From a virus (lineage: Duplodnaviria > Caudoviricetes), in IMG/VR virus record IMGVR_UViG_3300023213_000432, positions 263,424-327,423 of that record: 64,000 nucleotides of DNA. One strand, 5' to 3'. A program made the position numbers and the translations under genes. How positions within the stretch are numbered: position 1 is the stretch's first letter; the number at the start of each line of letters is the position of its first letter. Shown piece by piece: positions 2,357 through 60,709 of this stretch. Below the pieces are notes generated by a model. The model saw only the letters and a program-made list of their open reading frames with translations. It was not told the origin of the DNA and did not search any database.

Positions 2357-2824
2357 ATGAAACATACCATCGACTATTCCAAACTCGAAACTCAAGTTGA
2401 AAAGAAAGCATTTCGACTCGCCGATGTCAAAAATCAATTGGAAATAGTAGCTTTTGATATTGTTCGCTTTAAGGATGGAGATCGGGGCGCTCAATTATGG
2501 CAAGTCCAAAACGCAGATGATGGAGATTATATCGTTGCTCTGTATCAAGAGGATGAGGAGAAAAAAACTGCTTCTCCATGGAGCGTAGCTATTTCCAAGA
2601 CTTCCGGAGATGTTCAAATTTCCTATCATGGGGATCCTTTAACCCGTATAGCATTCACCAAACTAGGCATTCTTCGTTCTGAATTGGATAAAGTTTCTGA
2701 ATATCTTCCCGAAAAACTGGCTACTAATAAAAGACTAGTTCAAGCCCTATTGAAAGAGATGTCGGAACCTGCTAAAAATGAGGCATTAAAGAAATACCCT
2801 GAATTGGTAGGGATAAACACATGA
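2357..2824 (+). CDS. Hypothetical protein (probable virion/head-associated)
   Basis: 155-aa ORF with GAGGG RBS; ATGA-coupled to the next gene. Confidence 0.7.
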   Translation: MKHTIDYSKLETQVEKKAFRLADVKNQLEIVAFDIVRFKDGDRGAQLWQVQNADDGDYIVALYQEDEEKKTASPWSVAISKTSGDVQISYHGDPLTRIAFTKLGILRSELDKVSEYLPEKLATNKRLVQALLKEMSEPAKNEALKKYPELVGINT

Positions 2825-4425
2825 GCCTCGATAAGATACATCAACTGGCAAGTTCTTTGGTTAAATCGGCTGCCAATAATGAGAGGCTTGCTATTCCGCT
2901 GTTGCTTATCAAACTCAACAAACATCTACAGGATTTTCCCCAAGATCAAACGCTTGGCTCTATAGCCATGGTTCTTGGAAGAATGAGTAAGAATCAAACT
3001 GCTTTTATTCGCCGTGCTGATTTACATTCTCTTTATACCAAGCTTCATTCTCGCAATACTAAATTTCCTGATTTATTTAAGGAAGAACTAGGATTGACCG
3101 AGATAGAGCTGGTTAAATCTTTCCAACGAGATGATAGTGTTAAACCCATTGATACTTATGCTGGCGCTGATCCAGTATTAGCTAATGCTTTACAAAGCGC
3201 TTTTGATAATCAACTGCCTGTCAAGATGTATTCCCAAGTTTTGGCGGAACGTGCTCAAAAAAGTGTAGGAATCATTTTAGATGCATGGGGACTTAATCCT
3301 ACTTCTTTAGGAGTAGTGGAAGGTAATGACAAGTTCCTAATTGTCAAAGCGGATTATGAAACTCCTAAGGGAATTACTAGTTTCTATGTTCCAGTGGAGA
3401 CATCTAATGACAAACTGATAGAACCATCTACTTTTGTTGGAACTAAGATGGGACTTCAACCACTCAATCATACCAACATTAAAACTTATCTTACCACTCA
3501 TAGTGGCACCAAATTGACAATTAGTGCCTCAGACGTTCTGAATGGATTGGTAAAAGCTGCCTCGGAAAATCGAGAAATTACCGATGTGGAAATTGCTATC
3601 ATCAAGCTTAATGCAGAACGTAAGAAACATAGCGAATTTGCCGCTAATCAGGTTATTGGACAAAAAATTGCTGAAGCATCTGTTAAAGAAGTTAATTTAC
3701 CCAAACATGATGAATTTGTTTCTTTTGAAAAGCAATTTACCTCGCCAGCGGGGTTAGCTGCTTTTCAATTCGGAACCGATCAAATTAAGGTTGCCCGAGA
3801 ACATTTAGTACGGGAATTAGTTAGCTTCGGTTATAAAAATTCACAAGTAGTAGTTTCTGGGCACAAAGATCAAACAGTGTTTTATAGTGTATCTTTGGAT
3901 GCGGGTAAAATTGGATTTGTCATTCCTGTCAAAATTGTCAATGGTAAAGTGATTAAACCAACCATGATGATTTGCAATGGTTCTCCGATAGCTTTTACTT
4001 CGGAAGGCATTAATCAACTTTATGTTGATAACCAGACTGACTTCAAAGCAGCAGCCGCTGCATCTCCAATGTTTGAACTCAAGCCCAATGAACTGATTGC
4101 TACCATCAAACAAGCTATGTTGGAAGAAAATCACAGCAAAGCCCAAGATGCTCTTAATGTGCTCCGGAGCTTAGGAGATGAGAAAGTTTATGCTTTGGGG
4201 TTTCAAGAATTTTTGCATGGACTAAAAGGCAAATCAGCTCCTCAAACCTCTTGCTCTAAACCCATCAAAACTGCAGCCAGTTCTCACTTGGTGTGTAGCC
4301 ATACTGGATTGCCAATTCATAAAGTGTATCAGGATAAAGATGGCAACTGTCGTCCTTTGTATCGTCAAGGGGCAGATGAAACCTATCAAGGCGCTTATTT
4401 CATGAACGCCAAGATTTTTGGGTGA
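2821..4425 (+). CDS. Hypothetical 534-aa protein with C-terminal Cys/His cluster
   Basis: Long ORF in a coupled operon; C-terminal CSK..HLVCSHTGLPIH..CRP; several K-x-A motifs. Confidence 0.75.
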   Translation: MSLDKIHQLASSLVKSAANNERLAIPLLLIKLNKHLQDFPQDQTLGSIAMVLGRMSKNQTAFIRRADLHSLYTKLHSRNTKFPDLFKEELGLTEIELVKSFQRDDSVKPIDTYAGADPVLANALQSAFDNQLPVKMYSQVLAERAQKSVGIILDAWGLNPTSLGVVEGNDKFLIVKADYETPKGITSFYVPVETSNDKLIEPSTFVGTKMGLQPLNHTNIKTYLTTHSGTKLTISASDVLNGLVKAASENREITDVEIAIIKLNAERKKHSEFAANQVIGQKIAEASVKEVNLPKHDEFVSFEKQFTSPAGLAAFQFGTDQIKVAREHLVRELVSFGYKNSQVVVSGHKDQTVFYSVSLDAGKIGFVIPVKIVNGKVIKPTMMICNGSPIAFTSEGINQLYVDNQTDFKAAAAASPMFELKPNELIATIKQAMLEENHSKAQDALNVLRSLGDEKVYALGFQEFLHGLKGKSAPQTSCSKPIKTAASSHLVCSHTGLPIHKVYQDKDGNCRPLYRQGADETYQGAYFMNAKIFG

Positions 4426-5324
4426 TCATGAAATTGACTCGGTTGGGAGAAATTTTCGCTCTCAAGTATAAAGTGGCAGCGGATCCCAAAGAGCTGGAGA
4501 TTTCTCTTCGCAATCAAATTAGGGCGCTCTGGAAATATCCTCATGAGTTGTTCAATGTTTTAGAAGCTTGTGCTAACTCAGATGTAAAGAGCCCAAAAGA
4601 TGCTCATGGACGCAAGGCACTAGAAGGACAGCGCTTTTGTCAAAAAGTGTTAGCGCTGGTGGATTATCTACAAGCCAAGATGGATAGTGCGAATTTGGGA
4701 GAAATACGAGAGGTATTACATCGTTTGATCAAATTGATCGACACTAATAAAGATCTCAAATTCGATGTAGAGGGAAAGCCCACCAAAGAGGGAGAGGTTT
4801 CTGGGGTGCAGTTTCCACATGTTTCTGCTACAATTGAACATATGTTTGAGAAAATACGCCCTAAGACCAAACAAGTAGTTCGAGTGCAACAGGAGAATTA
4901 TGGCAAAGCTCGAACTGGACTAGCTCGAATGTTGAGTTTAGCTCATGATATGTTAGGCACTCTTCAAAGATTGGAGATTATGGTGCCAGAGCAATTTACT
5001 CACGTATCCAAAATTGATGTGGATGAGGATCTGCCGGAAAGATTTGCTCCCCAACGGGCACCTCTAAAAGAACATGAAATTATCGATTTCATTCGGCAGT
5101 ATGGAGAAGACTATGGCGTTTCAACTTATGAAGATTGGAGGATTCTTTTTGAGAACGATCCTCAATTGAAAGAAGAAATAACCACGGTTATTAACGCATT
5201 GAGAAGGGGGCAGTATCCGCGTGGCGCTATTGATGTTCAGCTTCGAATTGCGGAAATTATGAGACGCTATGAAGAACGAAAATCAAAAAATGCCCCGGTG
5301 TTTGAGGACGAGGAAATTTTATGA
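4422..5324 (+). CDS. Hypothetical helical protein
   Basis: 300-aa ORF overlapping both neighbours by 4 nt. Confidence 0.7.
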   Translation: MIMKLTRLGEIFALKYKVAADPKELEISLRNQIRALWKYPHELFNVLEACANSDVKSPKDAHGRKALEGQRFCQKVLALVDYLQAKMDSANLGEIREVLHRLIKLIDTNKDLKFDVEGKPTKEGEVSGVQFPHVSATIEHMFEKIRPKTKQVVRVQQENYGKARTGLARMLSLAHDMLGTLQRLEIMVPEQFTHVSKIDVDEDLPERFAPQRAPLKEHEIIDFIRQYGEDYGVSTYEDWRILFENDPQLKEEITTVINALRRGQYPRGAIDVQLRIAEIMRRYEERKSKNAPVFEDEEIL

Positions 5325-6040
5325 GAATATCAGAACTATTAAACGCAATGGCTAATTGGCTAGAAAGTCCAGAAAATGAGGCTTTGTTGCTAGCAGAAGA
5401 CAACGATGAAGCTTTGAAAATAGTAGCGGAATCTTGCGTAGAAGCAGCTACTATTTTGAGAAAAACAGCGCAACAAGTAGACGTCTTAGAGCCGATGGAA
5501 CCTTCTCAAATCACCCCAGAAACGGTGGATGGATTAGCTGAATTAGCTGCCGCTTTAGATGAATCGGGTGATATTGAGTTTAAAAAACAAGCTTCTGTTA
5601 TTGATGAATTATTGTTATCGATTGCGGCTCCACCCAACGCCACTGTCGAAAGAAAAGATTTGCTCGAAAATAGATTAATTGATTTGAAGAAAAAATATGA
5701 AGGCAATCGAGAGATGCTTCATGAAATCAATCGAACAAAAGAATCGGAAGATGCTATCAAGAAAAGCAAGATGACGGAGTATGCAGAAATTCATATGATG
5801 CCTTTATCCACGCGAACGTGTTTAGATCATCCCGGCGCTCAGATGACGAGAGTAGGTGAAAACATGTGGCGCTGCAATCTTGATGGCAAAATCTATAATA
5901 CAGAAACGGGCTTTACGTTAAATAATGGTATTAAGGTTCCGGGCGGCAATGTGCAGAACCAGACACAAAATTCTCTTAATAATTTTTATTATGCTAGTTT
6001 TGACACTAGAGATGGGCGACTGGGTTACGTCAAGCCCTAA
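5321..6040 (+). CDS. Hypothetical protein with helical-hairpin module and C-terminal Zn-ribbon-like region
   Basis: GLAELAAALDESGDIEFKKQASVIDELL; TRTCLDHPG..WRCNLDG. Confidence 0.7.
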   Translation: MRISELLNAMANWLESPENEALLLAEDNDEALKIVAESCVEAATILRKTAQQVDVLEPMEPSQITPETVDGLAELAAALDESGDIEFKKQASVIDELLLSIAAPPNATVERKDLLENRLIDLKKKYEGNREMLHEINRTKESEDAIKKSKMTEYAEIHMMPLSTRTCLDHPGAQMTRVGENMWRCNLDGKIYNTETGFTLNNGIKVPGGNVQNQTQNSLNNFYYASFDTRDGRLGYVKP

Positions 6041-22986: not shown

Positions 22987-25900
22987 ATGCCGATTGATAA
23001 AACTAATAAATTGTGGTTGGGTCCCTCTAATTCTTCTCAATATCTACAATCCAAATCTGCGATTCCTCCGGTAAGCGCGTCGATGTCCAAATCTGTTTCT
23101 GCTTTTCGAAAACAAGAAATTGCCGATGAAGTAGAACAAGGATTGTTTAGAGACGGAAGTTCTCCTTATAGAGAGCCAAATGAATACGGCTCCACTTATA
23201 ATGGACGAGTTCTTGCTGGTATTTCCAAAATAGCTCAGGTTGTTGGAAATTCGGGAACAGGCGGCGGGTTCCGCGGTGGCTTTGGTGATACTATTATGCA
23301 AGCTCCGGAAGTGTATTCACCTCTATGGCTAAACAGCAATTTAAGTCTTCCTCGAGATCGCGCTACTATTAACGCTTGGTGCCGCAGTTTCTACGCTCTT
23401 AATCCGTTTGTTCATAACGCTATCAATTTGCATAGCACTTATCCCATTGCTAAACTCAGCATTAAGTGTCCCAATAAAAACATCGAAAAATTCTTTAATG
23501 ACATGATTGAAGAAATTGATTTGATGAGCATTTGTGTTCAAATCGCTCAAGAATATTGGTTATTGGGTGAAGCCTTCGTATATTCCGAGTTAGATGAAGG
23601 CCAGGGCAAATGGAGTCGATTATTGATTCAAAACCCAGATTATATGATTGTCAAGCGCACTGTAGTTGCAGATGAGCCAATAATCATGTTGCGTCCGGAT
23701 GAGAATTTGAAGAAAATTATTACCTCTAATCGTCCTACGGATATTGAACAGCGCAAACAACTTAATCAACATATCATTGATTCAGTAAAACGCGGTCAAA
23801 ATATTCCGTTAGATAATTTTCACGTGTCTCATTTAGCTCGAAGAATTAGTCCGTATGAAATTCGAGGAACAGGATTGCCCACATGTATTTTTCGTCAATT
23901 AATGCTTTTTGATCAATTAAGAGAATGCTATGACGAGAAAACTGAAGTCTTGACAGATCATGGATTCAAAACTATTGATCAATTAGTTCATAAGACATCT
24001 AAGTTGAAACTCAATTCTAACCATGTTAATGGTGCCGAAGTAAATGAAAACGGAAAAGTATCTTCTATTTTGACAATGAAAGAAGATTTCAAAGTAGCTT
24101 GCGTCAATCCTGAAACTAACAATATTGAATATCATCAACCCATCGAATTGCACATGTCTCATTATACTGGGAAAATGCTGCATTTTAAATCACGAAACTT
24201 TGATACATTAGTTTCTCCTAATCATAAAATGTGGCTCCAAAAAAAGAATCGTTTGAATGGTATTTCTTGTTGGAATGCATGGGAGAAAATGCCAGCCAAA
24301 GATATTAATCCAAAAACCACATATAGGTTTATGGGAACCACTAAGTGGCAAGGAAAACGCCTTAAAAAAGTTGATGTTCTAGGAAAAAAAATTCCTATCG
24401 AACTATATTTGAGATTTTTGGGGTATGTAATTTCAGAGGGGTATCTTGGACAGAATTACATAGATCTTTCCCAAAAGATAACATCAGATTGTTTGCTCGA
24501 TTTGCAAAATACGATGCATCAGTTTGCCAAATATTTTGATAAATCTGTGTCTGACAGAATTCAAACAACTGACAATTTTAAAAAACATGGTTTCAAGAAA
24601 CAACCTATCGATCGATGGAATGGACGAATTTATAGCAAAGCGCTGCAAGATTTTTTTGTTCAAGAAGTTGGTACCAAAGAGGGCTCTACTGCAGAATATA
24701 AACATATTCCGCAATGGATTAAAGTATTATCTCCAGATCTTTTAGAAATCTTGTTAGAAAGTTTGGTTTTTGGAGATGGAAGCCACTTTCATAACAAATG
24801 CTCAGAGGCTCAATGTTACTATACGGTTTCCAAACAACTGGCGGATGATGTTCAAGAAATAGTTTTGAAATGTGGATTTGCTCCATCTATTTCTACTAAA
24901 CCATTAAAATCGGGTAATACAGAATATCGTGTTTCTTGGTCAAATGCAGCTGATGGTAATTATCCAGTTTTGGCACCTAACAAAAAATATCCACCAAAAA
25001 TCAAAGAAGTGGAATATAATGGTGTAGTGTGGTGCTTCGAGGTTCCGACCGGATTATTCATTACTCGTCGCAATGGAAAAATTGCTATTCATGGCAATAG
25101 CAAATACGCTCAAGCATCGGAAATGATTAATCCAATGACCTTAGTGAAAATCGGCACTGATGCAGCTGATGGGCTTCACCCAACTTTTCAAGACTTAGAG
25201 GCATGGCGAGATGTTTTTGATGCGGCTCAAAACAATCGCAATTTCAAAATCTTTACTCATGCTGGAGTAGCAGTGGAACGCGTTGGCTGGGGTCAGGGCA
25301 TCTATGACATTTCAGGCGATATTACCCAATTGATGAAAGAAATTTTTATTGGTCTCCAAGCGCCTCCTGTGATCATGGGAGACACTTCTGATACTACTTA
25401 TGCTAACGGTGGTGTGGTTCTTGATGTTCTGCGGCAGCGATACATGCAATTTCGCAATATGATGTCCGCTTGGCTAAAACGCAAGATTTTTGCTCCCATC
25501 TCTAAAATTCAAGGCTTTTATGATTATTCTGGTGCCAAGAAACAATTGATTGTTCCAGAAATTGATTGGAATCATATGTCTCTTTTTGATACTGGAGATT
25601 TTATGAATATCCTTGTTCAATTAACTCAGGGAACCGGCGAACAGAAGAGAGCTTCTCTTCATACTTTGTACCGTTCTATGGGACTTGATTGGGAAGATGA
25701 GCAAAGAAAAATTCGCAAAGAAGCTATTCAAGCCGCCATTATGGAAAAGGAAAAAGCCGCCTTAGCTAAAATGGAACTTAATTCTCTAAGATCTTTAGAC
25801 GAAGAAGATGAGATTCAAGAGGTTAAAGATGATAAAGGCGCACCAACTACGGCTCCAGAACCTCCATTGCCGGGTGAAACTCCAACTGGTGCGTTGCCGG

Positions 25901-26048: not shown

Positions 26049-27314
26049 GTGAGGATTATTATGCAGAAGACTGCTCAAAAACGAAGTCTGCTTTCCAGAT
26101 TGCGAGAAATGACCGACATCGGTGGAATTGCTGCCGAAAAGTTTTTTCATCCCGAATTTCAAGAACTTATGGATCGTTTGCGCAATGATACTGATGATCC
26201 CATTCGTGCTATTGTTTCTGGGGAAAGAATTGGAGATGCTGATCCTCCTGCTGATGGCATATCACTCAAAGATTTGCTTAAATCAGCTCGCTCCAATATC
26301 AATCGTCGAGAATATATGAAAACAGTTGCTGATTTAAGTCGTTTTCATAAAAAGATGGATGATATTATTCGAATACTTTCTTCTTTCAAATCTAACATTG
26401 ACGCTATTCATGAGAAATTTCTTTTTCAAGATTTAGATGAAGAAAGCAAGCAACATCTACAAGAATTGAAAACACGTTTAGCTCATTCAACGCCTTCCTT
26501 AACTAAGGAAGCTGGGCTTTTGGATTTTCTCCTCAATTTACGCGAGGAACGTGGCAGGGCTTTAGCTGCTTGGGAAAAACGGTATCCTAAACAAGTCAGT
26601 AAGCTGAAGAGAGATACCGAGAGTCTCTTGAGGCGATCTGAAGGATTATTGTCCAGAGTATTATCAACTCTAAAAGAAATGGCTACTGCTCGTGCAACTA
26701 GGAAAGTAGATAGCTACATTCTTTCTGGAGAAAAAATGGCTAAGGCATATCGGGATTATGATACTGAATTTAGAAAGTATTATATGGACAATGTTAAGGG
26801 ATTTTTAGAGAAACAAGAATTAGTAGCTCCAATTAAAGAGGTTCCCAAACCACAAGAGATGGCTAAACAAGAGGTTAAGGTAGAGCCCAAACCTGCAACA
26901 TTAGAACAAGCACCTATTCCGGCTGCTTTTGAACCTCCTCCCACTATAATGGAGTCTAAGCCTCCAACCGTTGAACAAGATTTAGCTACTGCGCCAACAG
27001 AAAAAGTTCCACCGCCAGTAATGACGCCTCAATCACAGTCGGTGGAAGAAATGTATCAACGAATTCAACAGCCCGGCGGAATTCCAGCATTGCAGCCAAA
27101 AGTTCCTACCATTGGAATTCCCTCAACGCTTCGTTCTCCCGGAACACCTCCTAAAAAATCTCACCACAAATTTCTACAATCTTTAGAAGTTATGTCTCAA
27201 GAACAGCCGGCTATGTTAGCTATTCATATTCACAAGTATGCTCAAAACATTCAAGATACTGATCCCCAAACCTCCCGACGCTTGTTCCAACTAGTTAGAT
27301 CCATTGGGGAGTAA
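26049..27314 (+). CDS. Hypothetical putative head protein with Pro-rich linker
   Basis: 421 aa; MQKTAQ and LTKEAG motifs; coiled-coil N-half. Confidence 0.75.
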   Translation: MRIIMQKTAQKRSLLSRLREMTDIGGIAAEKFFHPEFQELMDRLRNDTDDPIRAIVSGERIGDADPPADGISLKDLLKSARSNINRREYMKTVADLSRFHKKMDDIIRILSSFKSNIDAIHEKFLFQDLDEESKQHLQELKTRLAHSTPSLTKEAGLLDFLLNLREERGRALAAWEKRYPKQVSKLKRDTESLLRRSEGLLSRVLSTLKEMATARATRKVDSYILSGEKMAKAYRDYDTEFRKYYMDNVKGFLEKQELVAPIKEVPKPQEMAKQEVKVEPKPATLEQAPIPAAFEPPPTIMESKPPTVEQDLATAPTEKVPPPVMTPQSQSVEEMYQRIQQPGGIPALQPKVPTIGIPSTLRSPGTPPKKSHHKFLQSLEVMSQEQPAMLAIHIHKYAQNIQDTDPQTSRRLFQLVRSIGE

Positions 27315-28938: not shown

Positions 28939-29673
28939 ATGGATATCGAACAAATTCTCCAATTAGCAACCGAATATCACCAACGTTGTTTTGGTTTGAT
29001 CAAAACTGCTATCATTAGAAAATTACCTAATGGTAAATATCGAGTGTTATCAGAAAGGGGCAAAAATCTAGGAACATTTGATTCTAAAGTACAAGCCGAA
29101 CATCGCCTAAATCAAATTGAGTTTTTTAAGCACAAAGATAAGTCTAAAGCTAAAGACCAAACAATAATTGATCTTACTGACATCGATGATTTTTCTTATT
29201 CAGCTATCATGCGTAAATTGCGACAAAAAGCTTCCAAAGAGCAAGTAAAAGATTTTTTAAAGATGTTTAAGAAACGTTTTGACGAGAGCGTCAAGAACAA
29301 ACTTCAAAGACCAGAAAAAGTGGCTTTGCAAGATACGCTCATCAAATTCAATAAGTTATACCCTATTAAGATTAAAAAGAAACTTATCAAAAGTGCCGCG
29401 ATCAGCGAATTAGGAGATGCTAGTTTAGTTGGTCGATACTTAGCTGATATTATCCGATTTACCCTTAACCGAATACCTCAAGAACGAAGACAAAAGGCAT
29501 TTAATAATCTTAAAAACAAGTTCATGATGTTAGACGAAAATGACATTGCTGCCAAAAAATTACCACCTTTTGCTGCCATGGGACAATCAATCACCTTTGT
29601 CAAACACATTCTGTTTAATCAAGACGCTCATTATGTTAGAGAAGTTTTGGATGCTATTGTAAGGGCATTATGA
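28939..29673 (+). CDS. Hypothetical putative head protein
   Basis: IIRKLPNGKYRVLSERGKNLGTF..AEHRLNQIEFFK domain flanked by LIKTA and LIKSA. Confidence 0.7.
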   Translation: MDIEQILQLATEYHQRCFGLIKTAIIRKLPNGKYRVLSERGKNLGTFDSKVQAEHRLNQIEFFKHKDKSKAKDQTIIDLTDIDDFSYSAIMRKLRQKASKEQVKDFLKMFKKRFDESVKNKLQRPEKVALQDTLIKFNKLYPIKIKKKLIKSAAISELGDASLVGRYLADIIRFTLNRIPQERRQKAFNNLKNKFMMLDENDIAAKKLPPFAAMGQSITFVKHILFNQDAHYVREVLDAIVRAL

Positions 29674-31107: not shown

Positions 31108-31184
31108 CCTAACTATGGCCATATTGTTGTATTTGACGGCATAATTGGGTATTTTGATTGAGAGCTAGTTTTTCGGAGATAATA

Positions 31185-31334
31185 ATGTTTGTGAAATATG
31201 CAGATGGGCAAATCGTATCAGTTCTTGATGAAAAAGAATTGACGGAAGAGCAAAAAAAGACCGCCGAAGCTATGACAGCTAAATCCACCGAAAAGACAAA
31301 AGAAGTGGAAACAAATCCCACGGAGAAAAACTAA
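31185..31334 (+). CDS. Small 49-aa protein missed by the ORF track
   Basis: MFVKYADGQIVSVLDEKELTEEQKKTAEA...; GGAG RBS, motif at 31141, TAATG overlap with gene 31334. Confidence 0.7.
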   Translation: MFVKYADGQIVSVLDEKELTEEQKKTAEAMTAKSTEKTKEVETNPTEKN

Positions 31335-34300
31335 TGTCGTTTATCAAGCTTGGTGAAGCAATTGAGATTAATAGAATTGAAAATGCGGAATCTTGCCTTC
31401 CCGCTTTAGATCCTCAAATTTTAGAAAATTTCAAAAAAATGGCAGCTAATCTTCGAAAGGTAGCGCCTCGAGCTGAAGATTTTCTCTACTTTTCAGCTGC
31501 TATTATTCATGCGGCAGAAGCGTCAGCTATCAATGATGATGGCACTCCTAAACTTACCATTAGAGGCGAACCAGTGCAAGTTGGATGGGACACGTCTGGT
31601 GGAACTTGGCGCTGGACAAGTAATGATCCTAATATCAAACCATATAAAAATAATAATTGTCTAGTCGCAGGAACTAAAATTCTGATGAGTGACGGCTCTA
31701 TTAAAAATATTGAAAATATCGTCGTAGGAGATGAAGTTATTACTCATACCGGTGTCGTTAAGAAAGTTCTTGAAGTTTCTCGACGCCCCTATAATGGTAA
31801 GTTACTTGCATTCAAAATCAAAAATAACGAAAAAATATTCTGCACACCGGAACACCCCTTTTATCATGTTAATTTGGATGGATTTTATAGTAAAGGGCTC
31901 AAGGTTCTATCTGAACGAAAAAAGAACAATGAAAATTTTCGTACTACATTCAAATTTTCTGAAGCGAACAAATTATCTGTTGGCGACCTTTTGGTATCAC
32001 CAGTTTTGCATCAAAAAACCGAGACAGATACCATCAATCCTAATAAAGCTAAATTATTAGGCATTTTTGCAGCCGAAGGATCATTTACCAAAAAATATGA
32101 CAAACGACAAGGTATTAAATTCACGCTTGGTATTGATGAAGTGCGAACCGCCCAAAACATCAAAGAAGTGTTTGAAGAGGAGTTTCCAGAATGTTCTGTC
32201 AGAGTTCTTCCAGAACCAGAGCGCTCTGTAATTTCAGTAAGTGCCACTGGAGCGAATATTGCTGAATATTTCTTTTATCATATTGGTGAATATTCGCATG
32301 AAAAAATTCTAAGTAAAGAACTTGTGTTTGCTCCTGATGATTGCAAAAAGGCATTTTTGTCAGGATACATTGATGGAGACGGATGTTTAACTGATTACAA
32401 CAAACTAATTGTAATTACAGTGTCGCCTCATTTGGCTTATCAAACGAGAACCATGCTTAATGCTATGGGAGTTGGATCATCTCTAAGAAAAAAAGATAAA
32501 TGCAAACGTAAAATTAATGAAAAATATAGAGAATATGATTGTCGGGAACATTATAGGATCGAAATTTACGGGAATGCTTATAAAACCCTTGAACTTGAAA
32601 AATATACTAATAAGTATAAGTTCGGACAATATAATCACAAAATATTTTCTAACTTTGAAAAAGACTTTTGCTTACATGCAATTACTGCAATTGAAGAGCA
32701 AGATTTTGTAGGAGATGTCTTTAATTTTGAGGTAGAGGACGATCATTCCTATGTTGCGAATGGTATTGTCAGTCATAACTGTGATATATTCCCAGAACAG
32801 GAATTAGTTAAAGCATATAAAAAGTGGATTGGCAAGCCACTCTGCATCGACCACAAATCATCCTCAGTAGATCATACCCGAGGCTTTATTGTAGATACTT
32901 ATTATGATCGTGTGCTAAAACGTGTTATTGCCTTATGTGCTCTAGATAAAGTTAATTATCCGGAATTGGCTCGAAAAGTGGGCACCGGAATGCAAACTGC
33001 TTGTTCTATGGGCACGGCAGTTGGTAGGGCTATTTGCACTGATTGTGGTAGGGTAGCGCGAGCCGAACAAGATTTTTGTGATCATATGCGCCGCAAAACC
33101 TGTTACGGGGAAATCAATATCGACCTCAATCCCATTGAATTATCCATTGTTATTAATGGAGCCGATCCTAAGGCGCACATCAAACATATCATTGCGGCCG
33201 CTAATACTCTTAATACCTACGTTGAGAATAAAGCTAAAGAACTCAATAAGTTAGCCGATCTGGTTTTTTCGGCTAACCTTTCAGTTAATGATTCCAAAAC
33301 GCTTGAAGGCAACAAAACTGCTTCTTTTACAGTACAGGCTAATGATATTGAACAGTTCAAAACTGATTTGGATGAGGCATTTCAAAAGTTAAGTGAAATA
33401 AATGCCTCCGCAAAAATTTCTCCTAAAGATACTAATGATCTCGCATTTAACCAATCGTCAGGCACTGTTGCAATGGATGAAGGAGCAGTGTCGGGAAATG
33501 ATGATTCTGGATTGTCTCCTCCTCATGCGAGATTTGCTTCCATTGAAGAGGACACTATCGCAAGCCTTCGTGAAGTCACTGCGGCTATTGAAGCCAAACT
33601 GAATCAAATGAAGCAGAGTTTAGATAAATTGGTCACTCGTAGCCCTAAAGTGCGAGATTCTCAACCAAACACATACGAGGAAACAATGTCTGGATCAAAC
33701 GATATGAATAAGCAAGCTTACTTTCAAGGAACCGAGGAACCAACTCCCGGTCAGCCCAAGTATCCCAAAGATCCTACTCAAGAGAAATTGCGTGAGCATG
33801 AGGATAAACACATGGTTGGACAGACTCCATTTCCAAGTGTAGGTCCAGTGGATGGAATGCATCCCAGCCCAGAATCAGCTGAGCCTTCCGATGAATTAGA
33901 GCGTAAAAAGATGTTAGCTCGAGCTGAAGCGGAAGAACGCCGTCTGAAGAGAGCCGCTATTGTGGAACAAGTTAAAAAGTCTTTGGAAGAAAAGAAAGCA
34001 TACTATCAGGGTGGCGGTGGCGTTAATGAACCAGCTCCTCACAAAGTTAAGTATCCTAAAGATGGTCTTCAAGAAGATGTCCGAGATCATGAGGATAAAC
34101 AAATGGTAGGTCAGAAACCATTCCCCGGCGTCGGTCCAGTGGATGGTATGCATCCAAGTCCTGACTCCGCTGAACCTTCCGATGAATTGAAACGTAAGCA
34201 AATGTTACAACGCGCTTCTTTGCGTGCTCGTTTTGTTAAAGCTGCTAATGAAGACGGTAGTCAGAATTTAGGTAAGAGTGCTTGGGAAGTATTTCTTGGA

Positions 34301-36031
34301 GACAAGTTATTGCTGACAGCTTCCGTGGAAGATCTTTCCGGCGGACGTTCTGAGATGATGTATGACTCCATTGCTACCAAAGATTTTGGAGCTAAACTAA
34401 TTGATAAAGTTAAAACGCAAGGATCAGAAAAAGTAGCTGCTCTTTACAAGAGTGCTCAGGCTCTTCCTCCAGCTCCGGAATTGCCCGTTCCTCCAGCTGA
34501 AGCCCCTATGTCCGAAGATACTGGTAAAGAAGGAGATCCCAAAGCTACCGCAGTTGAACTAGTTGAAAAAGTTCGCGATCTTGTCTCTGACTTAGTAGAG
34601 GCGGTTCGGGCTCTGACTGGCGAGCAAGCCGAAATGGGTGAGATGGCTCCAGAAATGGGAGCTGCAGCTTCCGATGAAGCATTCGGTACCAATACTCTCA
34701 ATACTTTCCGTAAGGAATTGAATGGATCTTTGACTCAAGCCATGAATGAAACCATTTCTGAACTCAAAGATCATCAGCAAGAATTGGAGATCATTGCAGG
34801 ACTTTTTGACAAGGGCGGCGTTAATGATTCGAATAAAGACGTCGTAGCTCCTGTGATTGAAGATGCTTTTAATGAAACCAAGACTGCAGTGGCTGATGGG
34901 TTTAAGCTAATGACTGCCTTTATCAAGTATGCTCGTGGCACCAATGCTATCGTTAAACGGGCAGAAATGGAAGCAGAACTTGCGGCACTAGCCAAGGGAG
35001 ACGATACAATGACCACGGAAAAAGATAGTCATTCCAACGATGACTTGATGAGCCTAATTCAAGACACCAATGCTGATTTGGATGCGGTGCATGCTTTGAT
35101 GGTGGATGACAATGCTCATCATGACAGCGACACAGAAAGCGATTCTACTATGGATGCAGATGTAGAAGCGGCTGCTGCGGACGCTAATGATTTAATGGCT
35201 AAACCAGAAGAATTGAAAGATCTTCAAGTTAAACCCGGAACTGAGGTTAAAGTAGTTGCTTCTATCGATTATGATACCAAAGAAAGTCGGGCTGCTCTTC
35301 GAGCCAAATTAGCTGCCGATGCTCTTGGTAAGCAAGATGATGGGCAAATTCATGACATGTCCAAAGAAAAGTTTAGTGACATGCTGGATCATGCAAATCG
35401 TTTAACTGATGGGCAAACTCATTTAGACGTCAAACCATCGGATCATCTTGGGTTAGTAGAAACTCTTCCAGAAGTCAATAAGGAAATGATGGATGTTGCC
35501 AAAGCTCCACCTAAGGTTCGTAAAGATGCGGAAGCCATTCAAAAGATGGTATCGGAAGGAAACTTGGATCCCAAGGATGTAGATGAATTGGTTGCCCATG
35601 GACTGGATAAAGATGCCGTTGCTTATTGGAAGAAATATTACGGACAAATCGAAGGTGGATCCGAATTCGCCAGCGAACTAGTAAAAGAACATGCTAAGGC
35701 TAAGCTAGAAGAAGAACTTAACAAGTTTAAAGTCAAGATGGGCCGTGCTTATGAATTGGCTTACGATATGGTAGAACGAGGTCTTTGCCATTCTGATCGA
35801 ACTGCTGTTTCTGCTCAAGTGGAAGAAATCATGAATTTTGATGACACTAATTTCCAGACTTTGAAGAATGTGGTAGCACGTCATACTCCAATCCACAAGT
35901 CAGCGGGACGAATGCCACAAGTGAGCGGAATGGTTGATCTTGATGAGGTTAAATCATCTTCTCAAGTTGAAGGAAGCTTACAAGAACAATTGTCGGCAGC
36001 CTTCTCCAAAACCTCCAAACGAATGTTTTAA
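31334..36031 (+). CDS. Putative prohead maturation protease fused to scaffold-like domains, with intein
   Basis: After splicing reads KNNNCDIFPEQELVKAYKKWIGKPLCIDH..SMG..ELSIV (His/Ser motifs as in phage prohead protease-like domains). Long acidic coiled-coil C-half; lies between portal and capsid genes. Confidence 0.7.
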   Translation: MSFIKLGEAIEINRIENAESCLPALDPQILENFKKMAANLRKVAPRAEDFLYFSAAIIHAAEASAINDDGTPKLTIRGEPVQVGWDTSGGTWRWTSNDPNIKPYKNNNCLVAGTKILMSDGSIKNIENIVVGDEVITHTGVVKKVLEVSRRPYNGKLLAFKIKNNEKIFCTPEHPFYHVNLDGFYSKGLKVLSERKKNNENFRTTFKFSEANKLSVGDLLVSPVLHQKTETDTINPNKAKLLGIFAAEGSFTKKYDKRQGIKFTLGIDEVRTAQNIKEVFEEEFPECSVRVLPEPERSVISVSATGANIAEYFFYHIGEYSHEKILSKELVFAPDDCKKAFLSGYIDGDGCLTDYNKLIVITVSPHLAYQTRTMLNAMGVGSSLRKKDKCKRKINEKYREYDCREHYRIEIYGNAYKTLELEKYTNKYKFGQYNHKIFSNFEKDFCLHAITAIEEQDFVGDVFNFEVEDDHSYVANGIVSHNCDIFPEQELVKAYKKWIGKPLCIDHKSSSVDHTRGFIVDTYYDRVLKRVIALCALDKVNYPELARKVGTGMQTACSMGTAVGRAICTDCGRVARAEQDFCDHMRRKTCYGEINIDLNPIELSIVINGADPKAHIKHIIAAANTLNTYVENKAKELNKLADLVFSANLSVNDSKTLEGNKTASFTVQANDIEQFKTDLDEAFQKLSEINASAKISPKDTNDLAFNQSSGTVAMDEGAVSGNDDSGLSPPHARFASIEEDTIASLREVTAAIEAKLNQMKQSLDKLVTRSPKVRDSQPNTYEETMSGSNDMNKQAYFQGTEEPTPGQPKYPKDPTQEKLREHEDKHMVGQTPFPSVGPVDGMHPSPESAEPSDELERKKMLARAEAEERRLKRAAIVEQVKKSLEEKKAYYQGGGGVNEPAPHKVKYPKDGLQEDVRDHEDKQMVGQKPFPGVGPVDGMHPSPDSAEPSDELKRKQMLQRASLRARFVKAANEDGSQNLGKSAWEVFLGDKLLLTASVEDLSGGRSEMMYDSIATKDFGAKLIDKVKTQGSEKVAALYKSAQALPPAPELPVPPAEAPMSEDTGKEGDPKATAVELVEKVRDLVSDLVEAVRALTGEQAEMGEMAPEMGAAASDEAFGTNTLNTFRKELNGSLTQAMNETISELKDHQQELEIIAGLFDKGGVNDSNKDVVAPVIEDAFNETKTAVADGFKLMTAFIKYARGTNAIVKRAEMEAELAALAKGDDTMTTEKDSHSNDDLMSLIQDTNADLDAVHALMVDDNAHHDSDTESDSTMDADVEAAAADANDLMAKPEELKDLQVKPGTEVKVVASIDYDTKESRAALRAKLAADALGKQDDGQIHDMSKEKFSDMLDHANRLTDGQTHLDVKPSDHLGLVETLPEVNKEMMDVAKAPPKVRKDAEAIQKMVSEGNLDPKDVDELVAHGLDKDAVAYWKKYYGQIEGGSEFASELVKEHAKAKLEEELNKFKVKMGRAYELAYDMVERGLCHSDRTAVSAQVEEIMNFDDTNFQTLKNVVARHTPIHKSAGRMPQVSGMVDLDEVKSSSQVEGSLQEQLSAAFSKTSKRMF
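31658..32779 (+). mobile_element. Intein (374 aa) with LAGLIDADG endonuclease
   Basis: N|CLVAGTKILMSDG start; LLGIFAAEG and FLSGYIDGDG; FNFEVEDDHSYVANGIVSHN|C end. Confidence 0.93.
33710..34216 (+). repeat. Internal tandem protein repeat (two copies) in the protease/scaffold gene
   Basis: KxA-Y[FY]QG..KYPKD..[RE]HEDKxMVGQxPFPxVGPVDGMHPSPxSAEPSDELxRKxML-x-RA occurs twice. Confidence 0.9.
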
Positions 36032-43989: not shown

Positions 43990-45030
43990 ATGAATTCAGA
44001 ACTCGCTTTTCATGTCGAGACTCGAATAGCAGAGATATTGTTGTCAGACAACTCACTTCATAAAGTCGGAACTGATGGGACAGTAAGTTCTTTGACAGAT
44101 AAAGTTAAAGACTATGTCATGCACCATATTGATAAAGATGATGTAGTAGGCAGCTTAGTTAATATCTTGGCACCGGGTGTATTATCTATGGCTATCGGTG
44201 GTTGGTTTGGTATTTTACTCGGATTAGCTTTGCGAGTTTTTAATGTAGATATTTATAGTATATTCACTTCTATTTGGTCATCGTTGAAGCCATCTCTTTC
44301 AGGAGACCAAAAAGTTAGCTCTCAACAAGTGGATCAAATTGTTCATGGAGCCGTAAGAGAACATGCGGGTGCTTCTGCTACTGCTTCTTGGCAAGATATT
44401 AGAATGTTAAAGTTAGCTATGATAGAGTATGATGCTCATGTTCGCAACATCAAGCAAGCTCGTCGTTCAACATTAGATGATTTCTCTCGACTTTTAGGAG
44501 GATCAAGATATGGAAGAGGCGCGGCGTTCGTAGATTTATTGGGTAAAGTATTAAGTTGGGTATTCAAAGTAGCTTTAGCTTCGGCTGGATTAATGGTAGC
44601 AGGAGATGTGGTTAACAAGATTTTACACCGTCCCAGCGCTTTGGATGATACCATTCAAAAAGGTAAGCCCACGGATCCAGAGATCTCTGCTCCTCCTTGC
44701 GCATCCACTCAAACTAAGTTCAAAGTTAATCCCAGCTACCACGAAGAGAATTACAATACTAAAGAATCCGATTGGACTGAGCGAGCCCCAAACACGCAAA
44801 GCGGAATTGTCAATATGTTGATTAATTTTGCTAAGGAAGTATATCAAGGATTGGATACCCTAGATTCTCAAATTAAAACCTCTTCCACTTTTCAGACTTT
44901 GGTCAATGAGATTGCTTGGTATAATCATGCTTCCGCCGGGGATCCCATTGTTTTTCTTCCAACAAACTTCAAGTCCAAAAAAATGGTGGTAGATTGTTTT
45001 ATCGATGAAGTAGCTAAAAAGACACCATAA
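43990..45030 (+). CDS. Hypothetical protein with hydrophobic helices (possible ejection/membrane-pore protein)
   Basis: LVNILAPGVLSMAIGGWFGILLGLALRVF and VLSWVFKVALASAGLMVAG segments. Confidence 0.65.
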   Translation: MNSELAFHVETRIAEILLSDNSLHKVGTDGTVSSLTDKVKDYVMHHIDKDDVVGSLVNILAPGVLSMAIGGWFGILLGLALRVFNVDIYSIFTSIWSSLKPSLSGDQKVSSQQVDQIVHGAVREHAGASATASWQDIRMLKLAMIEYDAHVRNIKQARRSTLDDFSRLLGGSRYGRGAAFVDLLGKVLSWVFKVALASAGLMVAGDVVNKILHRPSALDDTIQKGKPTDPEISAPPCASTQTKFKVNPSYHEENYNTKESDWTERAPNTQSGIVNMLINFAKEVYQGLDTLDSQIKTSSTFQTLVNEIAWYNHASAGDPIVFLPTNFKSKKMVVDCFIDEVAKKTP

Positions 45031-45048: not shown

Positions 45049-46287
45049 ATGAAAAACAGCGAAATATTCAACGAATTTTACAAGATCGCCGAAGAAAAAG
45101 GAATGATTCCTTTGGATGCCCCGGATAAAGCCAAAGAACAACTAGATAAATCGCCTCGTTGGGATTCTATGGATATTGATACTATTGCCGCTCTTTATGG
45201 TGTCAAACCCGATCTTCCCAAAGAAAATCAATACTCTCGCAATATTATCGAAGATGCCCATCCTAATTCTTGCATTCTTTCTCCTGCCCACGATAAACTT
45301 AATGGTCTGGTGGAGAATCAGAATGAACAACAAGCTATTATTATGCACATCATTCAAAGAACTCCGGATGGATTATCTTCTCATCGCAAATATGCAGAGC
45401 AGAATCTAATTCTTTCTTTGGTTCGTATTGCTAACGATTTGGATAATCAAGACCAAGATGAATTAAGAAAATTAGCGGATGCTTGTTTGCATCAAGTAAA
45501 CAAAACTGTGCCACTCAAAAAGGAGGCTTGGGTTGCTCCAGTGATCGGAATAGCTACGGCTTTATTGGGTATTTTATATGCTCAACAACATCTTCCATTT
45601 GTCAATGAGGGCTTTGAAAAAAATCATCAAAAACTGATTGCAGAAGTGGGCGATCTATTAACTGCTACGGCTAATTGGGGAGTAGGACATCAATATAAAC
45701 AGGGTTTTCTTGACATAATACGAGAATTTAAAGATCGTTTAATAGGGTTTTATGATACGTATCGTGTTAAAGTAGAACCTATCATTAAAGAGTTGGAACG
45801 GCCTAAAACTGGCGAAGAATTGATGAAAGCGGCTCAAAGGCCGGAATCTAATAGTATCATTGAGACATACAATGCAGTGGTGAAAGCAGCCACTGATATT
45901 GAAAGTTACATTGATAAAATCGCGCAAGATTTTCGTTCAGATACTTATAAAGTTCGACAAATTGAAGAAACCGGATTCTTGACCGGATTGGTGGAAAAAA
46001 CGCACATTTTTTTGGGTGGTAAAGGATTAATCGCGGATGATTTTGATGATGTGATTCGTGCCATTGACCCTTATAAAAAATCAATTGATGATATTCTTAA
46101 TATTTTTAAGGGCGCCAAATCAATAGAAAATTCAGCTAAAGAAGATTTGGCTAAAATATCGAAGCGTGAAGAAATGAAACCGGAAATTTCACCAACACCT
46201 GAACCACGTGGTGTTCCTGCTCCAGAGGAAGAAGTGACAGAAGAAGGAGTGGCAGAATTAGCGAAGGAATTAGGGTTGGAAGCGTGA
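45049..46287 (+). CDS. Putative internal head protein with AHP domain and one hydrophobic helix
   Basis: IIEDAHP..PDGL; helical hairpin; LKKEA followed by WVAPVIGIATALLGILYA. Confidence 0.7.
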   Translation: MKNSEIFNEFYKIAEEKGMIPLDAPDKAKEQLDKSPRWDSMDIDTIAALYGVKPDLPKENQYSRNIIEDAHPNSCILSPAHDKLNGLVENQNEQQAIIMHIIQRTPDGLSSHRKYAEQNLILSLVRIANDLDNQDQDELRKLADACLHQVNKTVPLKKEAWVAPVIGIATALLGILYAQQHLPFVNEGFEKNHQKLIAEVGDLLTATANWGVGHQYKQGFLDIIREFKDRLIGFYDTYRVKVEPIIKELERPKTGEELMKAAQRPESNSIIETYNAVVKAATDIESYIDKIAQDFRSDTYKVRQIEETGFLTGLVEKTHIFLGGKGLIADDFDDVIRAIDPYKKSIDDILNIFKGAKSIENSAKEDLAKISKREEMKPEISPTPEPRGVPAPEEEVTEEGVAELAKELGLEA

Positions 46288-51741: not shown

Positions 51742-52755
51742 ATGAATATGTTTGATTCACGAGGACAGATTAACGCTTCCTCAAATGCTGATCTTATGCA
51801 GCAACTTGTTAAATATGCGCAGATCCTTTCGGATAACGTTCCGGCTAATCAGGGTCTCGCAGGGCAGCCAGCTCTTTCTGATGAACGTCGGGACGATCTA
51901 GTTGCACGCGCTATTCAGACGCAAGATGGCAAAATTGCTCTTGCTCAAGCGATGGCAAATCCCATCCGAAGAAACTTAGATTATCACGGAATTGCTCGTA
52001 GAGCACTCGTGGTCGATCCTCTTCCTCAGGGCGCTCTTCCCACGTATGACCGTGATATTGATGTCGTGGCAGTGGTTATTGCCTCTAACGGCACTGGTCC
52101 TGAATCCCGCGTTTTCGGTGACCGTGTTACTGTTCCCGAGTTTGAGATTTATGCTAACCCAACCGTTCGTATCGCTGAAGTTAAGCGTCGCCGATTCAAC
52201 GTGATTGACCGTGCAGTCCAAAAGGCTCGCCAAGAAATCATGGCTCAAGAAGATGCCAACGTGTTTGCCGCTCTCGATGCAGCTGCTTCCGTTGAAAACA
52301 CCGTAATGGATATTGCGGATGCTGGTCTTCTCAAGCGTGATTTGGTGGAAATTAAGCAGCAAGTTGATCGTTGGGATCTCGTGACGACTAAATTCTTTAT
52401 GAACATCAACGAATTCACTGACATCCTCAAGTGGGGATCTGGTGGTGGTCAAGGCGTTGGTGGTGGTGACTTGGATCCAGTGACCATGCGCGAAGTTCTT
52501 CAGACTGGGCTTTATGCTCATATTTGGGGCGCAGACATTATGGTCAGTAAAATCGTTCCTCCGGGCACCGTCTATGGCGTGGCCGACCCTGAATTCGTCG
52601 GCGTAATGCCAGTGCGACAAGACATCGAAGTACTTCCTGCGGATGAGCCAAAACAATTGAAACTTGGCTGGGTTGTGAGCGAAATCATTGGTCTCGCGAT
52701 TGTCAATCCACGTGGCGCTGCAAAGGGTAATAAATCGGTTATCATCGGAGCCTGA
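51742..52755 (+). CDS. Major capsid protein (HK97 fold inferred)
   Basis: 337 aa, strongly biased codons, strong RBS and terminator; ALAQAMANPIRRNLDY..PEFEIYANP..; position at the end of the head module. Confidence 0.82.
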   Translation: MNMFDSRGQINASSNADLMQQLVKYAQILSDNVPANQGLAGQPALSDERRDDLVARAIQTQDGKIALAQAMANPIRRNLDYHGIARRALVVDPLPQGALPTYDRDIDVVAVVIASNGTGPESRVFGDRVTVPEFEIYANPTVRIAEVKRRRFNVIDRAVQKARQEIMAQEDANVFAALDAAASVENTVMDIADAGLLKRDLVEIKQQVDRWDLVTTKFFMNINEFTDILKWGSGGGQGVGGGDLDPVTMREVLQTGLYAHIWGADIMVSKIVPPGTVYGVADPEFVGVMPVRQDIEVLPADEPKQLKLGWVVSEIIGLAIVNPRGAAKGNKSVIIGA

Positions 52756-52790: not shown

Positions 52791-52829
52791 AAAACGACCT
52801 CTAACGCAAGTTGGAGGTCGTTTTCTTTT
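52791..52829 (+). terminator. Intrinsic terminator after the major capsid gene (probably bidirectional)
   Basis: AAAACGACCTCTAAC-GCAA-GTTGGAGGTCGTTTT followed by CTTTT. Confidence 0.85.
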
Positions 52830-59635: not shown

Positions 59636-59651
59636 ATAAGTTAAGGAAGTT

Positions 59652-59984: not shown

Positions 59985-59994
59985 GGATTTAATT

Positions 59995-60249: not shown

Positions 60250-60546
60250 CTAGTGTTTCCAAATGATTTGAATTATTTGAGCAATTAAAGCCAGTATTCC
60301 TGTAATAAATAATACTTGAACCTTAAACAAATCCTTGCTAATATGCTCGTTTTGAGTACTGATCTTCTCACTTTGAGCAATAACTTTTTCTTGATTAGCA
60401 GAAATTTTGGAAAGTTGAGAAATGATTTCTTCATTCTGATCCGCTACTTCTGTTTGGATCTCAACCGCTTTTTTATTGACTTCTAAAATGAGATCCATAT
60501 CTCGTTTTTCGATATGCTGTCCAATATCGATAATTTTTTCTGTCAT
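60250..60546 (-). CDS. Coiled-coil protein with C-terminal transmembrane helix (holin/XhlA-like candidate)
   Basis: Heptad coil followed by VQVLFITGILALIAQIIQIIW. Confidence 0.6.
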   Translation of the reverse strand: MTEKIIDIGQHIEKRDMDLILEVNKKAVEIQTEVADQNEEIISQLSKISANQEKVIAQSEKISTQNEHISKDLFKVQVLFITGILALIAQIIQIIWKH

Positions 60547-60553
60547 TGGAGCC

Positions 60554-60709
60554 TCACTTCGATGTTATATTATTTTTTCGATTCTTGATTTTAGAAATTA
60601 CTAAATCGCATCGTTCATTTAATCTACGATACTGATCGATTAAGGTTTCCTTAGTTTCAGCAGAGGCAGTCTTGATGATAATTTCGGGAGCAATGGTACC
60701 GGCAGACAT
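60554..60709 (-). CDS. Small 51-aa protein missed by the ORF track
   Basis: MSAGTIAPEIIIKTASAETKETLIDQYRRL...; AAAGGA RBS; fills the gap in the minus-strand operon. Confidence 0.7.
   Translation of the reverse strand: MSAGTIAPEIIIKTASAETKETLIDQYRRLNERCDLVISKIKNRKNNITSK

Follow-up and report, generated by a model that had tools for sequence, protein, structure and literature searches.

A hydrophobic-x-Lys-x-Ala motif in the head proteins of a phage G-like megaphage: a candidate cleavage code of its prohead protease

Does the short motif Lys-x-Ala (K-x-A), which recurs in the head proteins of an uncultured megaphage, mark the sites at which the prohead maturation protease of this phage cuts? 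The question was raised by an initial annotation of 64,000 nucleotides (the whole stretch analysed, referred to as the window) from IMG/VR record IMGVR_UViG_3300023213_000432, positions 263,424 to 327,423. This window covers the final 64 kb of a phage genome assembled as one contig of 327,423 bp, and it contains the packaging and head module of the phage: the large terminase (TerL, 21052-22932), the portal (22987-25998), a prohead protease-scaffold polyprotein of 1565 aa that is split by an intein (31334..36031, + strand; recognized by phrog_18299 head maturation protease and by intein Pfam families), and the major capsid protein (MCP, 51742-52755). The polyprotein is referred to as 31334, and other proteins are likewise designated by number. 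All the K-x-A sites noted in the annotation were found where it had placed them, including those in the small open reading frames (ORFs) 31158-31334 and 60554-60709. Each known prohead-protease rule is a key for reading the composition of the mature virion and the order of its assembly, and to our knowledge few such rules are available for tailed phages: L/I-x-E for T4, S/A/G-x-E for the phiKZ-like phages, and a few HK97-type cases. Assemblin-fold proteases (MEROPS S21, S80) read P3 and P1. Thus T4 gp21 (S80) cuts at (L/I)-x-E↓, phiKZ-type enzymes cut at (S/A/G)-x-E↓, and herpesvirus assemblin (S21) cuts at (V/L/I)-x-A↓S, while HK97-type proteases cut after Lys (arrows mark the bond that is cut or, for the phage studied here and its relatives, the bond that would be cut).

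For each protein, the expected number of K-x-A was computed from its own composition, and every X-x-Y pair was scored likewise. The head block, taken as 19 window ORFs with the intein masked, contained 77 K-x-A compared to 49.3 expected (z 3.9, p=1.6e-4), ranking second among 314 X-x-Y pairs. The remaining window ORFs contained 59 (51.9 expected). No excess was seen in the 334 ORFs outside the window (263 kb), either for K-x-A (335 compared to 340 expected) or for [LIMFVY]-x-K-x-A (110 compared to 106.7). The enrichment, which the annotation had left uncomputed, was thus borne out against non-structural genes and shuffles. In the spacing, order, and residue controls on the head block, KA, KxxA, KxxxA, AxK, RxA, KxS, KxG, and ExA showed no enrichment. 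Since the spacing and order controls were unenriched, the K-x-A signal does not stem from a Lys/Ala-rich regional composition.

The surroundings of the motif were examined in the same manner. The position two residues ahead of the Lys (P5) was hydrophobic in 39 of the 77 head-block K-x-A, compared to 23.2 expected. In a separate whole-genome set of 395 ORFs, of which 28 fall in the head block (window 20-53 kb), [LIMFVY]-x-K-x-A occurred 39 times in the head block compared to 18.7 expected (p=2.7e-5). The top three of all 395 ORFs were 45049 (7 vs 0.9), 31334 (12 vs 3.7), and 26049 (4 vs 0.75). The motif was also biased towards N-termini, being present within the first 40 residues of 8 of the 28 head-block ORFs and 28 of the 367 others (p=0.0018). 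At P1', Gln was favoured in this genome (13 vs 3.5 expected), and Ser, Ala, and Gly were not enriched. K-x-A↓Q, with 16 occurrences in head-module ORFs, was considered as a refined motif and dropped, because Gln at P1' is specific to this genome and the orthologs mostly have Ala or Ser. When the excess was resolved by protein family, it was largest for 31334 (+6.8 sites per protein), followed by 40416 (+2.9), 45049 (+1.8), 43990 (+1.6), 26049 (+1.5), 28939 (+1.3), and the MCP (+1.3). It was absent from TerL, 27318, 28541, 29670, 36046, 38874, 39489, 41552, 42460, the 48297 protein, and the homing endonucleases, and the large SH3-repeat proteins encoded elsewhere in the genome showed no notable excess.

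The established motifs were scored as well. In the window head block, [LI]xE was weakly elevated (91 vs 74.1 expected, z 2.0), and neither [ASG]-x-E (109 vs 103.7) nor [VLI]-x-A (139 vs 125.7, z 1.2) was enriched. In Bacillus phage G, z was -0.6 for [LI]xE, -1.7 for [ASG]xE, and 0.5 for [VLI]-x-A, none of them being an enrichment. Neither the T4-type (L/I)-x-E nor the phiKZ-type (S/A/G)-x-E specificity is seen here. The herpes-type (V/L/I)-x-A↓S specificity is not seen either, but Ala at the putative P1 would fit an enzyme that works like that class.

To assess conservation, orthologs of each window protein from 97 related metagenomic loci were aligned. Both Lys and Ala were retained in at least 65% of orthologs (25-60% identity) at 29 of the 68 assessable head-block K-x-A sites, and the split between conserved and unconserved sites was bimodal. 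These ~29 conserved sites match the statistical excess of ~28. Among 129 pair types, K-x-A had the largest share (0.38) in the top 15% of joint conservation; L-x-K was also near the top. The clearest of the conserved sites sit in otherwise variable sequence, as for K158 of 45049 (flank identity 0.20) and K34 of 40416 (flank 0.38). Conservation of the annotated sites thus held in part. The MCP site LVKYA, the portal site, and sites in three internal-type proteins were among the 29, whereas LKHA↓Q of 40416 (Ala replaced by V/T/I), MIKKA↓L of 36865 (Ser instead), and NIKQA↓R of 43990 were unconserved. So were two N-terminal sites that the annotation had not listed, MALKIA of 48297 and LVKSA of 2821.

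Whether a genuine prohead-protease motif leaves a trace of this kind was asked of T4, by applying the identical unbiased pair statistic to genes 20, 67, 68, 21, 22, 23, and 24. Of 231 pairs, the known gp21 motif took first place with IxE (29 vs 13.8) and third place with LxE (26 vs 15.2), and gp16-19 gave no signal. Hence a real prohead-protease motif does leave a footprint of this kind and size.

The MCP of the window is 54% identical to gp27 of phage G and has 1,788 metagenomic homologs at E <= 0.001, the best 120 of which are 84-92% identical and lie on contigs of up to ~480 kb. On account of these sequence matches, the genome is a member of a very widespread clade of uncultured phage G-like megaphages. 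With the motif specified in advance, two cultured relatives were analysed independently: phage G and Tunturi_5, an acidobacterial (Tunturiibacter) phage whose MCP is 33% identical. The gene order TerL, portal, protease-scaffold, MCP is common to the window, phage G, and Tunturi_5, with the protease between portal and MCP and, here, fused to a scaffold-like part. In phage G gp1-gp39, no X-x-Y pair was more enriched than K-x-A (67 vs 39.9 expected, z 4.3), L-x-K coming second, and a slice of replication and tail genes showed no excess (48 vs 53.3 expected). In Tunturi_5, K-x-A was again the top pair (45 vs 23.9, p=7.6e-5) in the block that begins with the ejection protein and closes with the gene following the MCP, and the tail genes gave 40 compared to 32.5 expected. 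In both phages the residue after the motif was often Ser, Ala, or Gly (28/67 vs 11.9 expected for phage G; 24/45 vs 11.7 expected for Tunturi_5). Several phage G N-termini, namely gp13 MKRLISKTA, gp38 MKRLIKKA, and gp20 MSKKISRLKKTA, echo LIKTA, LIKSA, LIKKA, and MIKKA of the window, and the phage G portal has RKMA↓S just ahead of its conserved core. The Tunturi_5 MCP carries TLLKSA↓A near its N-terminus, in the same place as LVKYA in the MCP of the window. In contrast, K-x-A is absent from phage G gp27 (282 aa), which also has nothing equivalent to the first 44 residues of the MCP encoded here. Should the K-x-A rule hold, the phage G capsid protein would be unprocessed and that of this clade processed.

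The enzyme proposed to read the motif was characterized next. 31334 comprises an N-extein (residues 1-108), the intein (residues 109-482), a protease core that extends to ~residue 630, and then a scaffold-like extension of ~930 aa. The intein (window 31658-32779; it begins with CLVAG and ends with VSHN, followed by C) has a LAGLIDADG homing-endonuclease domain and is inserted between KNNN and CDIFPE. Most orthologs are intein-less with Gly at the +1 position, while in other members the same position is occupied by an intein, in some cases a mini-intein. A profile search returned 1,999 protease homologs (E<=0.001), most of them 1,100-1,300 aa long with a protease and an extension, many with inteins. 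31334 matched phrog_18299 'head maturation protease' with E 9.5e-14, and sequence searches with its intein-less protease domain hit neither a Pfam family (E<=1) nor a PDB entry. The protease core shares 36.7% identity with gp19 of phage G, and gp21 is matched by the C-terminal part; by sequence, 31334 is phage G gp19 joined in one chain with a gp21-like C-terminal part.

An AlphaFold2 model of the protease was made on an intein-less ortholog that is 76% identical to the C-extein of the window. The predicted local distance difference test score was 90.5 with a 121-sequence alignment and 39 with a shallow alignment of 11 sequences. By VIA-align the model showed an assemblin beta-barrel, with Z 11.4 to the varicella-zoster virus (VZV) protease (116 residues aligned, root-mean-square deviation 2.7), 10.6 to that of pseudorabies virus (PrV), and 10.6 to T4 gp21 (5jbl, 134 aligned). 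Over the herpes proteases of VZV, PrV, herpes simplex virus, and human cytomegalovirus, Z was 8-11.4. Foldseek returned a probability of 0.9-1.0 with E about 0.01. The 31334 protease is thus modelled with the same assemblin fold as T4 gp21 and the proteases of herpesviruses. Two candidate catalytic residues, His133 and Ser184 (ortholog numbering), do not vary among the 121 sequences. The complex prediction of the protease domain with the N-terminal 60 residues of the MCP scored 0.01 and gives no evidence for or against binding. It may be noted that an invariant CxxC...CxH cluster lies inside the protease domain (31334 residues ~568-585; C194, C197, C208, and H210 of ortholog P0121) and is also present in phage G gp19. 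This cluster may be a zinc site; we know of no such site in T4 gp21.

The motif is densest in the polyprotein itself. In a wide family set of 117 protease-scaffold representatives with <50% mutual identity, K-x-A occurred 2382 times compared to 1519 expected, and family-conserved columns were found at K35, K793, K887, K1039, K1208, and K1325. Near the N-terminus, F-K-K-M-A↓A (K35; 31430..31444, + strand, as for all sites below) is a candidate autoprocessing site: F-x-K-x-A is present in 82% of the 117 members, with a flank identity of 0.39. K35 aligns with K43-T-A45 of phage G gp19, and the model places a helix at residues 27-43, ahead of the assemblin core that starts near residue 46. Just past the protease domain, L-N-K-L-A↓D (K639; 33242..33256) is a candidate 'release' site. 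Its joint conservation is 0.71 in close orthologs and only 0.19 across the wide family; the equivalent C-terminal tail of phage G gp19 has EKVA↓S and LKIA↓S.

The scaffold-like part contains a tandem repeat of ~95 aa (residues 790-885 and 886-980; 33701..34273) with 65% identity between the copies. Both copies have K-x-A↓Y-[FY]-Q-G at the start (K793, K887) and K-x-A at the end (K872, K969). K-x-[AG]↓Y at the repeat starts is kept across the family, with Tyr at P1' in 108/117 and 102/117 members. The conserved core of the repeat reads HEDK-MVGQ-PFP-VGPVDGMHPSP-SAEPSDEL. Further on, L-Y-K-S-A↓Q (K1039; 34442..34456) follows the pattern L-x-K-x-A↓Q with joint conservation 0.79, flank identity 0.38, and Gln at P1' in 92/117. 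The C-terminal candidate is I-H-K-S-A↓G (K1522; 35891..35905). Here 85% of the 117 members have K-x-A within +-12 alignment columns, the aligned position itself wobbling.

Candidate sites were then sought in the capsid, portal, and internal-type proteins. In the MCP, L-V-K-Y-A↓Q (residues 22-26; 51805..51819) retains K24 in 58/59 and A26 in 59/59 distinct orthologs, with A, S, or Q at P1'. No other element of the first 26 residues is as constant, and the site lies within the protein's most variable part. A cut at this candidate site would take off a 26-residue N-terminal propeptide. In the portal, I-S-K-I-A↓Q (K81; 23221..23235) lies in a Gly/Ser-rich N-terminal region ahead of the conserved portal core and appears as [VMI]-x-K-[YF]-A↓Q-V-V in 10-11 of 12 orthologs, with a flank identity of 0.43.

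The 45049 protein has three candidates. These are F-Y-K-I-A↓E (K12; 45076..45090; Lys and Ala each in 51/56 orthologs, flank identity 0.42), H-R-K-Y-A↓E (K114; 45382..45396; Lys in 51/56, Ala in 54/56, 98th percentile of joint conservation), and L-K-K-E-A↓W (K158; 45514..45528; Lys in 52/56, Ala in 47/56 with Gly in 7 more, flank identity 0.20). At K158, P5 is L, I, or F, and the site stands directly ahead of a hydrophobic, transmembrane-like segment (hydrophobic window 159-179). In the 40416 protein, four closely spaced and conserved sites were found between 40464 and 40652, viz. K19 (YVKAA↓Q), K34 (LIKKA↓S), K64 (SKYA↓K), and K77 (YKQA↓Q), with joint conservation of 0.69-0.95 (93rd-99th percentile) compared to a protein mean of 0.13. 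Though otherwise different, 45049 and 40416 share an N-terminal module, 'sF[VE]K[IV]A[QK]EKGL' (s-F-[VE]-K-[IV]-A-[QK]-E-K-G-[LM]-[IV]; window 40416-40480 and 45049-45110), with K12 at its end. The module resembles a common capsid-targeting peptide terminating in K-x-A.

For the 26049 protein, the N-terminal candidate M-Q-K-T-A↓Q (K7; 26061..26075) is conserved as MQKTA↓Q in 9/12 orthologs, with Ser in 2, and the real start of the protein is probably the Met at residue 5. Its internal candidate L-T-K-E-A↓G (K153; 26499..26513) follows [LIM]-[IV]-K-E-A↓[GSN] with a flank identity of 0.31, and K396 is also among the clearest conserved sites. The 28939 protein has L-I-K-T-A↓I (K22) and L-I-K-S-A↓A (K151), both within 28996..29397, with joint conservation of 0.77 and 1.00, respectively. 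The N-terminal M-I-K-K-A↓Y of the 30376/30427 protein (30457..30471) keeps Lys in 13/14, Ala in 14/14, and Tyr in 14/14 orthologs. M-L-K-L-A↓M of 43990 (K141; 44404..44418) is a weaker candidate (Lys or Arg in 39/50, Ala in 37/50, flank 0.24).

In our judgement, [hydrophobic]-x-K-x-A is probably the recognition and cleavage motif of the prohead maturation protease of this lineage, with the cut after Ala. The enzyme would be an assemblin-fold Ser/His protease that is synthesized as a polyprotein, joined to a long scaffold-like tail, and acts inside the assembled prohead. Its substrates would bind as extended strands, the S3 pocket taking the Lys and the S1 pocket the Ala, and the bond just past the Ala would be broken. 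N-terminal propeptides would be shed from the MCP (26 residues), the portal (about 83), and the internal or ejection-type proteins 26049, 28939, 30427, 40416, and 45049, and the protease would dismember its own scaffold extension at repeat and domain borders. The proposal of the initial annotation that 31334 cuts many head proteins at K-x-A is supported in its outline by the head-specific enrichment, the conservation, the recurrence in phage G and Tunturi_5, and the fold of the protease, from which we infer the cutting, its position, and the sites used. It has to be narrowed, as roughly a third to a half of the sites listed seem chance-like or are unconserved and the excess is confined to a subset of the proteins (31334, 40416, 45049, 43990, 26049, 28939, the MCP, and the portal).

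Prohead proteases that recognize a short motif and process a range of head proteins are a well-known kind of system. The annotation had taken T4 gp21 and phiKZ gp175 as models; herpesvirus assemblin is the better analogy for Ala at P1, because both of these phage enzymes cut after Glu. With assemblin, 31334 shares the fold, the protease-linker-scaffold layout, Ala at the would-be P1, and the P3/P1 register, and phage G and Tunturi_5 also prefer Ser, Ala, or Gly at P1'. It differs in having Lys instead of Val/Leu/Ile at P3, often Gln at P1' in this genome, the CxxC...CxH insertion and the intein, and candidate substrates far more numerous than the herpes scaffold alone. The herpes precursor is likewise a protease-linker-scaffold chain, cut at release (R) and maturation (M) sites (PMC4498786).

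T4 gp21 resembles 31334 in fold (Z 10.6 over 134 residues) and in the roughly two-fold, head-specific motif enrichment. It cuts many head proteins as well, including the MCP, the vertex protein, the scaffold core, and internal proteins whose short N-terminal targeting peptides have the motif at their end. However, gp21 has Glu at P1 and Leu/Ile at P3, is not fused to a long scaffold, and its similarity is undetectable by Pfam. The phiKZ-type motif has Glu as its last residue, and its capsid and protease belong to another lineage, the MCP here being of the phage G family. Among these giant phages (phiKZ gp175, SPN3US gp245, 201phi2-1), head, inner-body, and ejection proteins are processed extensively, including propeptides and the portal (PMC5694885, PMC10052503).

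Phage G gp19, gp20, and gp21 are also close. gp19 and gp21 are true homologs, and the N-terminal K43 and K50 of gp19 match K35 and K42 of 31334 in position; unlike here, the protease and the scaffold-like proteins of phage G are separate genes, and its MCP is without the N-terminal extension and K-x-A. We lean towards a shared code in the phage G-like lineage (this clade, phage G, and Tunturi_5) of the form [hydrophobic]-x-Lys-x-Ala↓(Ser/Ala/Gly/Gln). Such a code would combine the P1 Ala of the herpesvirus assemblins with a unique Lys at P3. It would add a third specificity class to the assemblin-fold proteases of phages and, among phage rules, would come nearest to that of the herpesviruses. 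In the literature searched, no published cleavage motif was found for phage G or the Tunturi phages and none of the K-x-A type; the K-x-A specificity, its lineage-wide footprint, and the herpes-like Ala at P1 appear to be undescribed.

Several observations weigh against a cleavage code. Over half of the K-x-A sites in the head block are unconserved, no K-x-A excess was seen for the head-block proteins 41552, 42460, 36046, 48297, and 27318, and with a two-residue core most single sites cannot be called. Conserved K-x-A in folded or helical, highly conserved segments need not be sites, as with K64 in the conserved core of the MCP and K1198 and K1208 of 31334, and the ortholog counts are not phylogenetically independent. 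The more distant, high-GC relative Rctr197k showed no enrichment (26 vs 21.3), so that the rule is not universal for this MCP family. The T4 head genes, in turn, showed a mild K-x-A excess (25 vs 16.7, z 2.0), so that a minor share of the signal may be common to head or scaffold proteins in general. Within 31334, K42-[VI]-A-P (residues 42-45; window 31457-31468) has Pro at the would-be P1' in 113/117 members, and phage G gp19 likewise has KIAPK; instead of being a site, it could act as a pseudo-substrate that resists cleavage or have a structural role. A literature search found no proteomic, N-terminal, or structural evidence of a cut for the clade, phage G, or Tunturi_5. Some of these points would suit a motif without function, produced by composition, by a Lys/Ala-rich helix habit of scaffold-like proteins, and by shared ancestry that inflates the counts. 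Only two residues are fixed, the T4 head genes have their mild excess, many of the conserved scaffold-part sites lie in predicted helical, conserved stretches, and over half of all sites are unconserved. We consider this explanation quite improbable. The enrichment is limited to a gap of one and to the order K then A, whereas a helix habit would favour i+3/i+4. Moreover, 263 kb of the same genome are without the excess, K-x-A ranks second of 314 pairs here and top in phage G and Tunturi_5, and Lys and Ala are kept within otherwise variable linkers.

It is also conceivable, though improbable in our view, that K-x-A is selected and left uncut, serving in docking, capsid targeting, or scaffold/capsid binding, or that a nearby bond is cut, e.g., after Lys. 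The enrichment, the conservation, and the N-terminal bias would suit a binding motif equally. The entire N-terminal module shared by 45049 and 40416 around the motif is what a targeting sequence would look like, and K42-x-A-P, with its invariant Pro at P1', looks uncleavable and could be a bound pseudo-substrate. Yet the capsid-targeting sequence of T4 itself terminates in the cleavage motif, which is also what the pair statistic recovers in that phage. The i, i+2 spacing equals the P3/P1 register established for assemblin-fold proteases, a scissile bond would typically show the preference for small P1' residues that is observed for phage G and Tunturi_5, and sites at repeat borders within the protease's own polyprotein are hard to explain as targeting signals. 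A protease other than 31334, from the host or the phage, might cut the motif, the specificity of 31334 being different. None of the evidence ties the motif physically to the 31334 enzyme, and phage G encodes five proteases, of which ClpP/ClpX are those detected in virions; phage G is reported to package ClpP/ClpX (10.1101/2024.12.16.628780). This we regard as very improbable, since the motif tracks the MCP/protease module over three phages with hosts from unrelated phyla (Lysinibacillus for phage G, an acidobacterium for Tunturi_5) and is densest in the protease's own polyprotein. In addition, ClpP is not sequence-specific, and signal peptidase I requires a small residue, as opposed to Lys, at -3. 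Signal peptidase I was rejected on account of its motif, as was the Prp/L27-type motif.

Other features of the window may be described briefly. A megablast of window 30-50 kb against cultured phages gave no match. Homing-endonuclease-type ORFs, HNH-like and GIY-YIG-like, stand between the head genes and around the MCP gene (46270-48194, 49105-50771, 51029-51592, and 52801-53403, all on the - strand), with 10-20 homologs in each related locus at 30-45% identity. The portal gene contains an insertion of ~390 aa with a LAGLIDADG domain (residues ~314-703; window ~23926-25095), which starts with CYDEKT and ends with IHGN before S. As it divides two blocks that align with the phage G portal, this second insertion is probably another intein. 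A 236-aa protein encoded at window 14521-15231 (- strand) has an invariant F-x-K-x-A-F-D in 51/51 orthologs. K-x-A occurred 134 times in these orthologs compared to 54 expected, and in other genomes the gene lies <=10 kb from the MCP gene. This protein may be another substrate or a head-associated protein.

If a hydrophobic-x-K-x-A cleavage code is true, it would account for the 26-residue N-terminal extension of the capsid protein of this clade, and it would suggest that the protease-scaffold polyprotein of 1,100-1,600 aa self-dismantles at repeat borders, as the herpesvirus precursor does. The rule can be tested in two cultured phages, G and Tunturi_5, and would provide a testable processing map for very abundant uncultured phages of 300-480 kb (1,788 capsid homologs). 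Propeptides, processed internal or ejection proteins, and a self-dismantling polyprotein would become predictable from sequence for thousands of uncultured megaphage genomes. A phage enzyme with Ala at P1 would also be added to the argument for a shared ancestry of the herpesvirus and phage maturation proteases.

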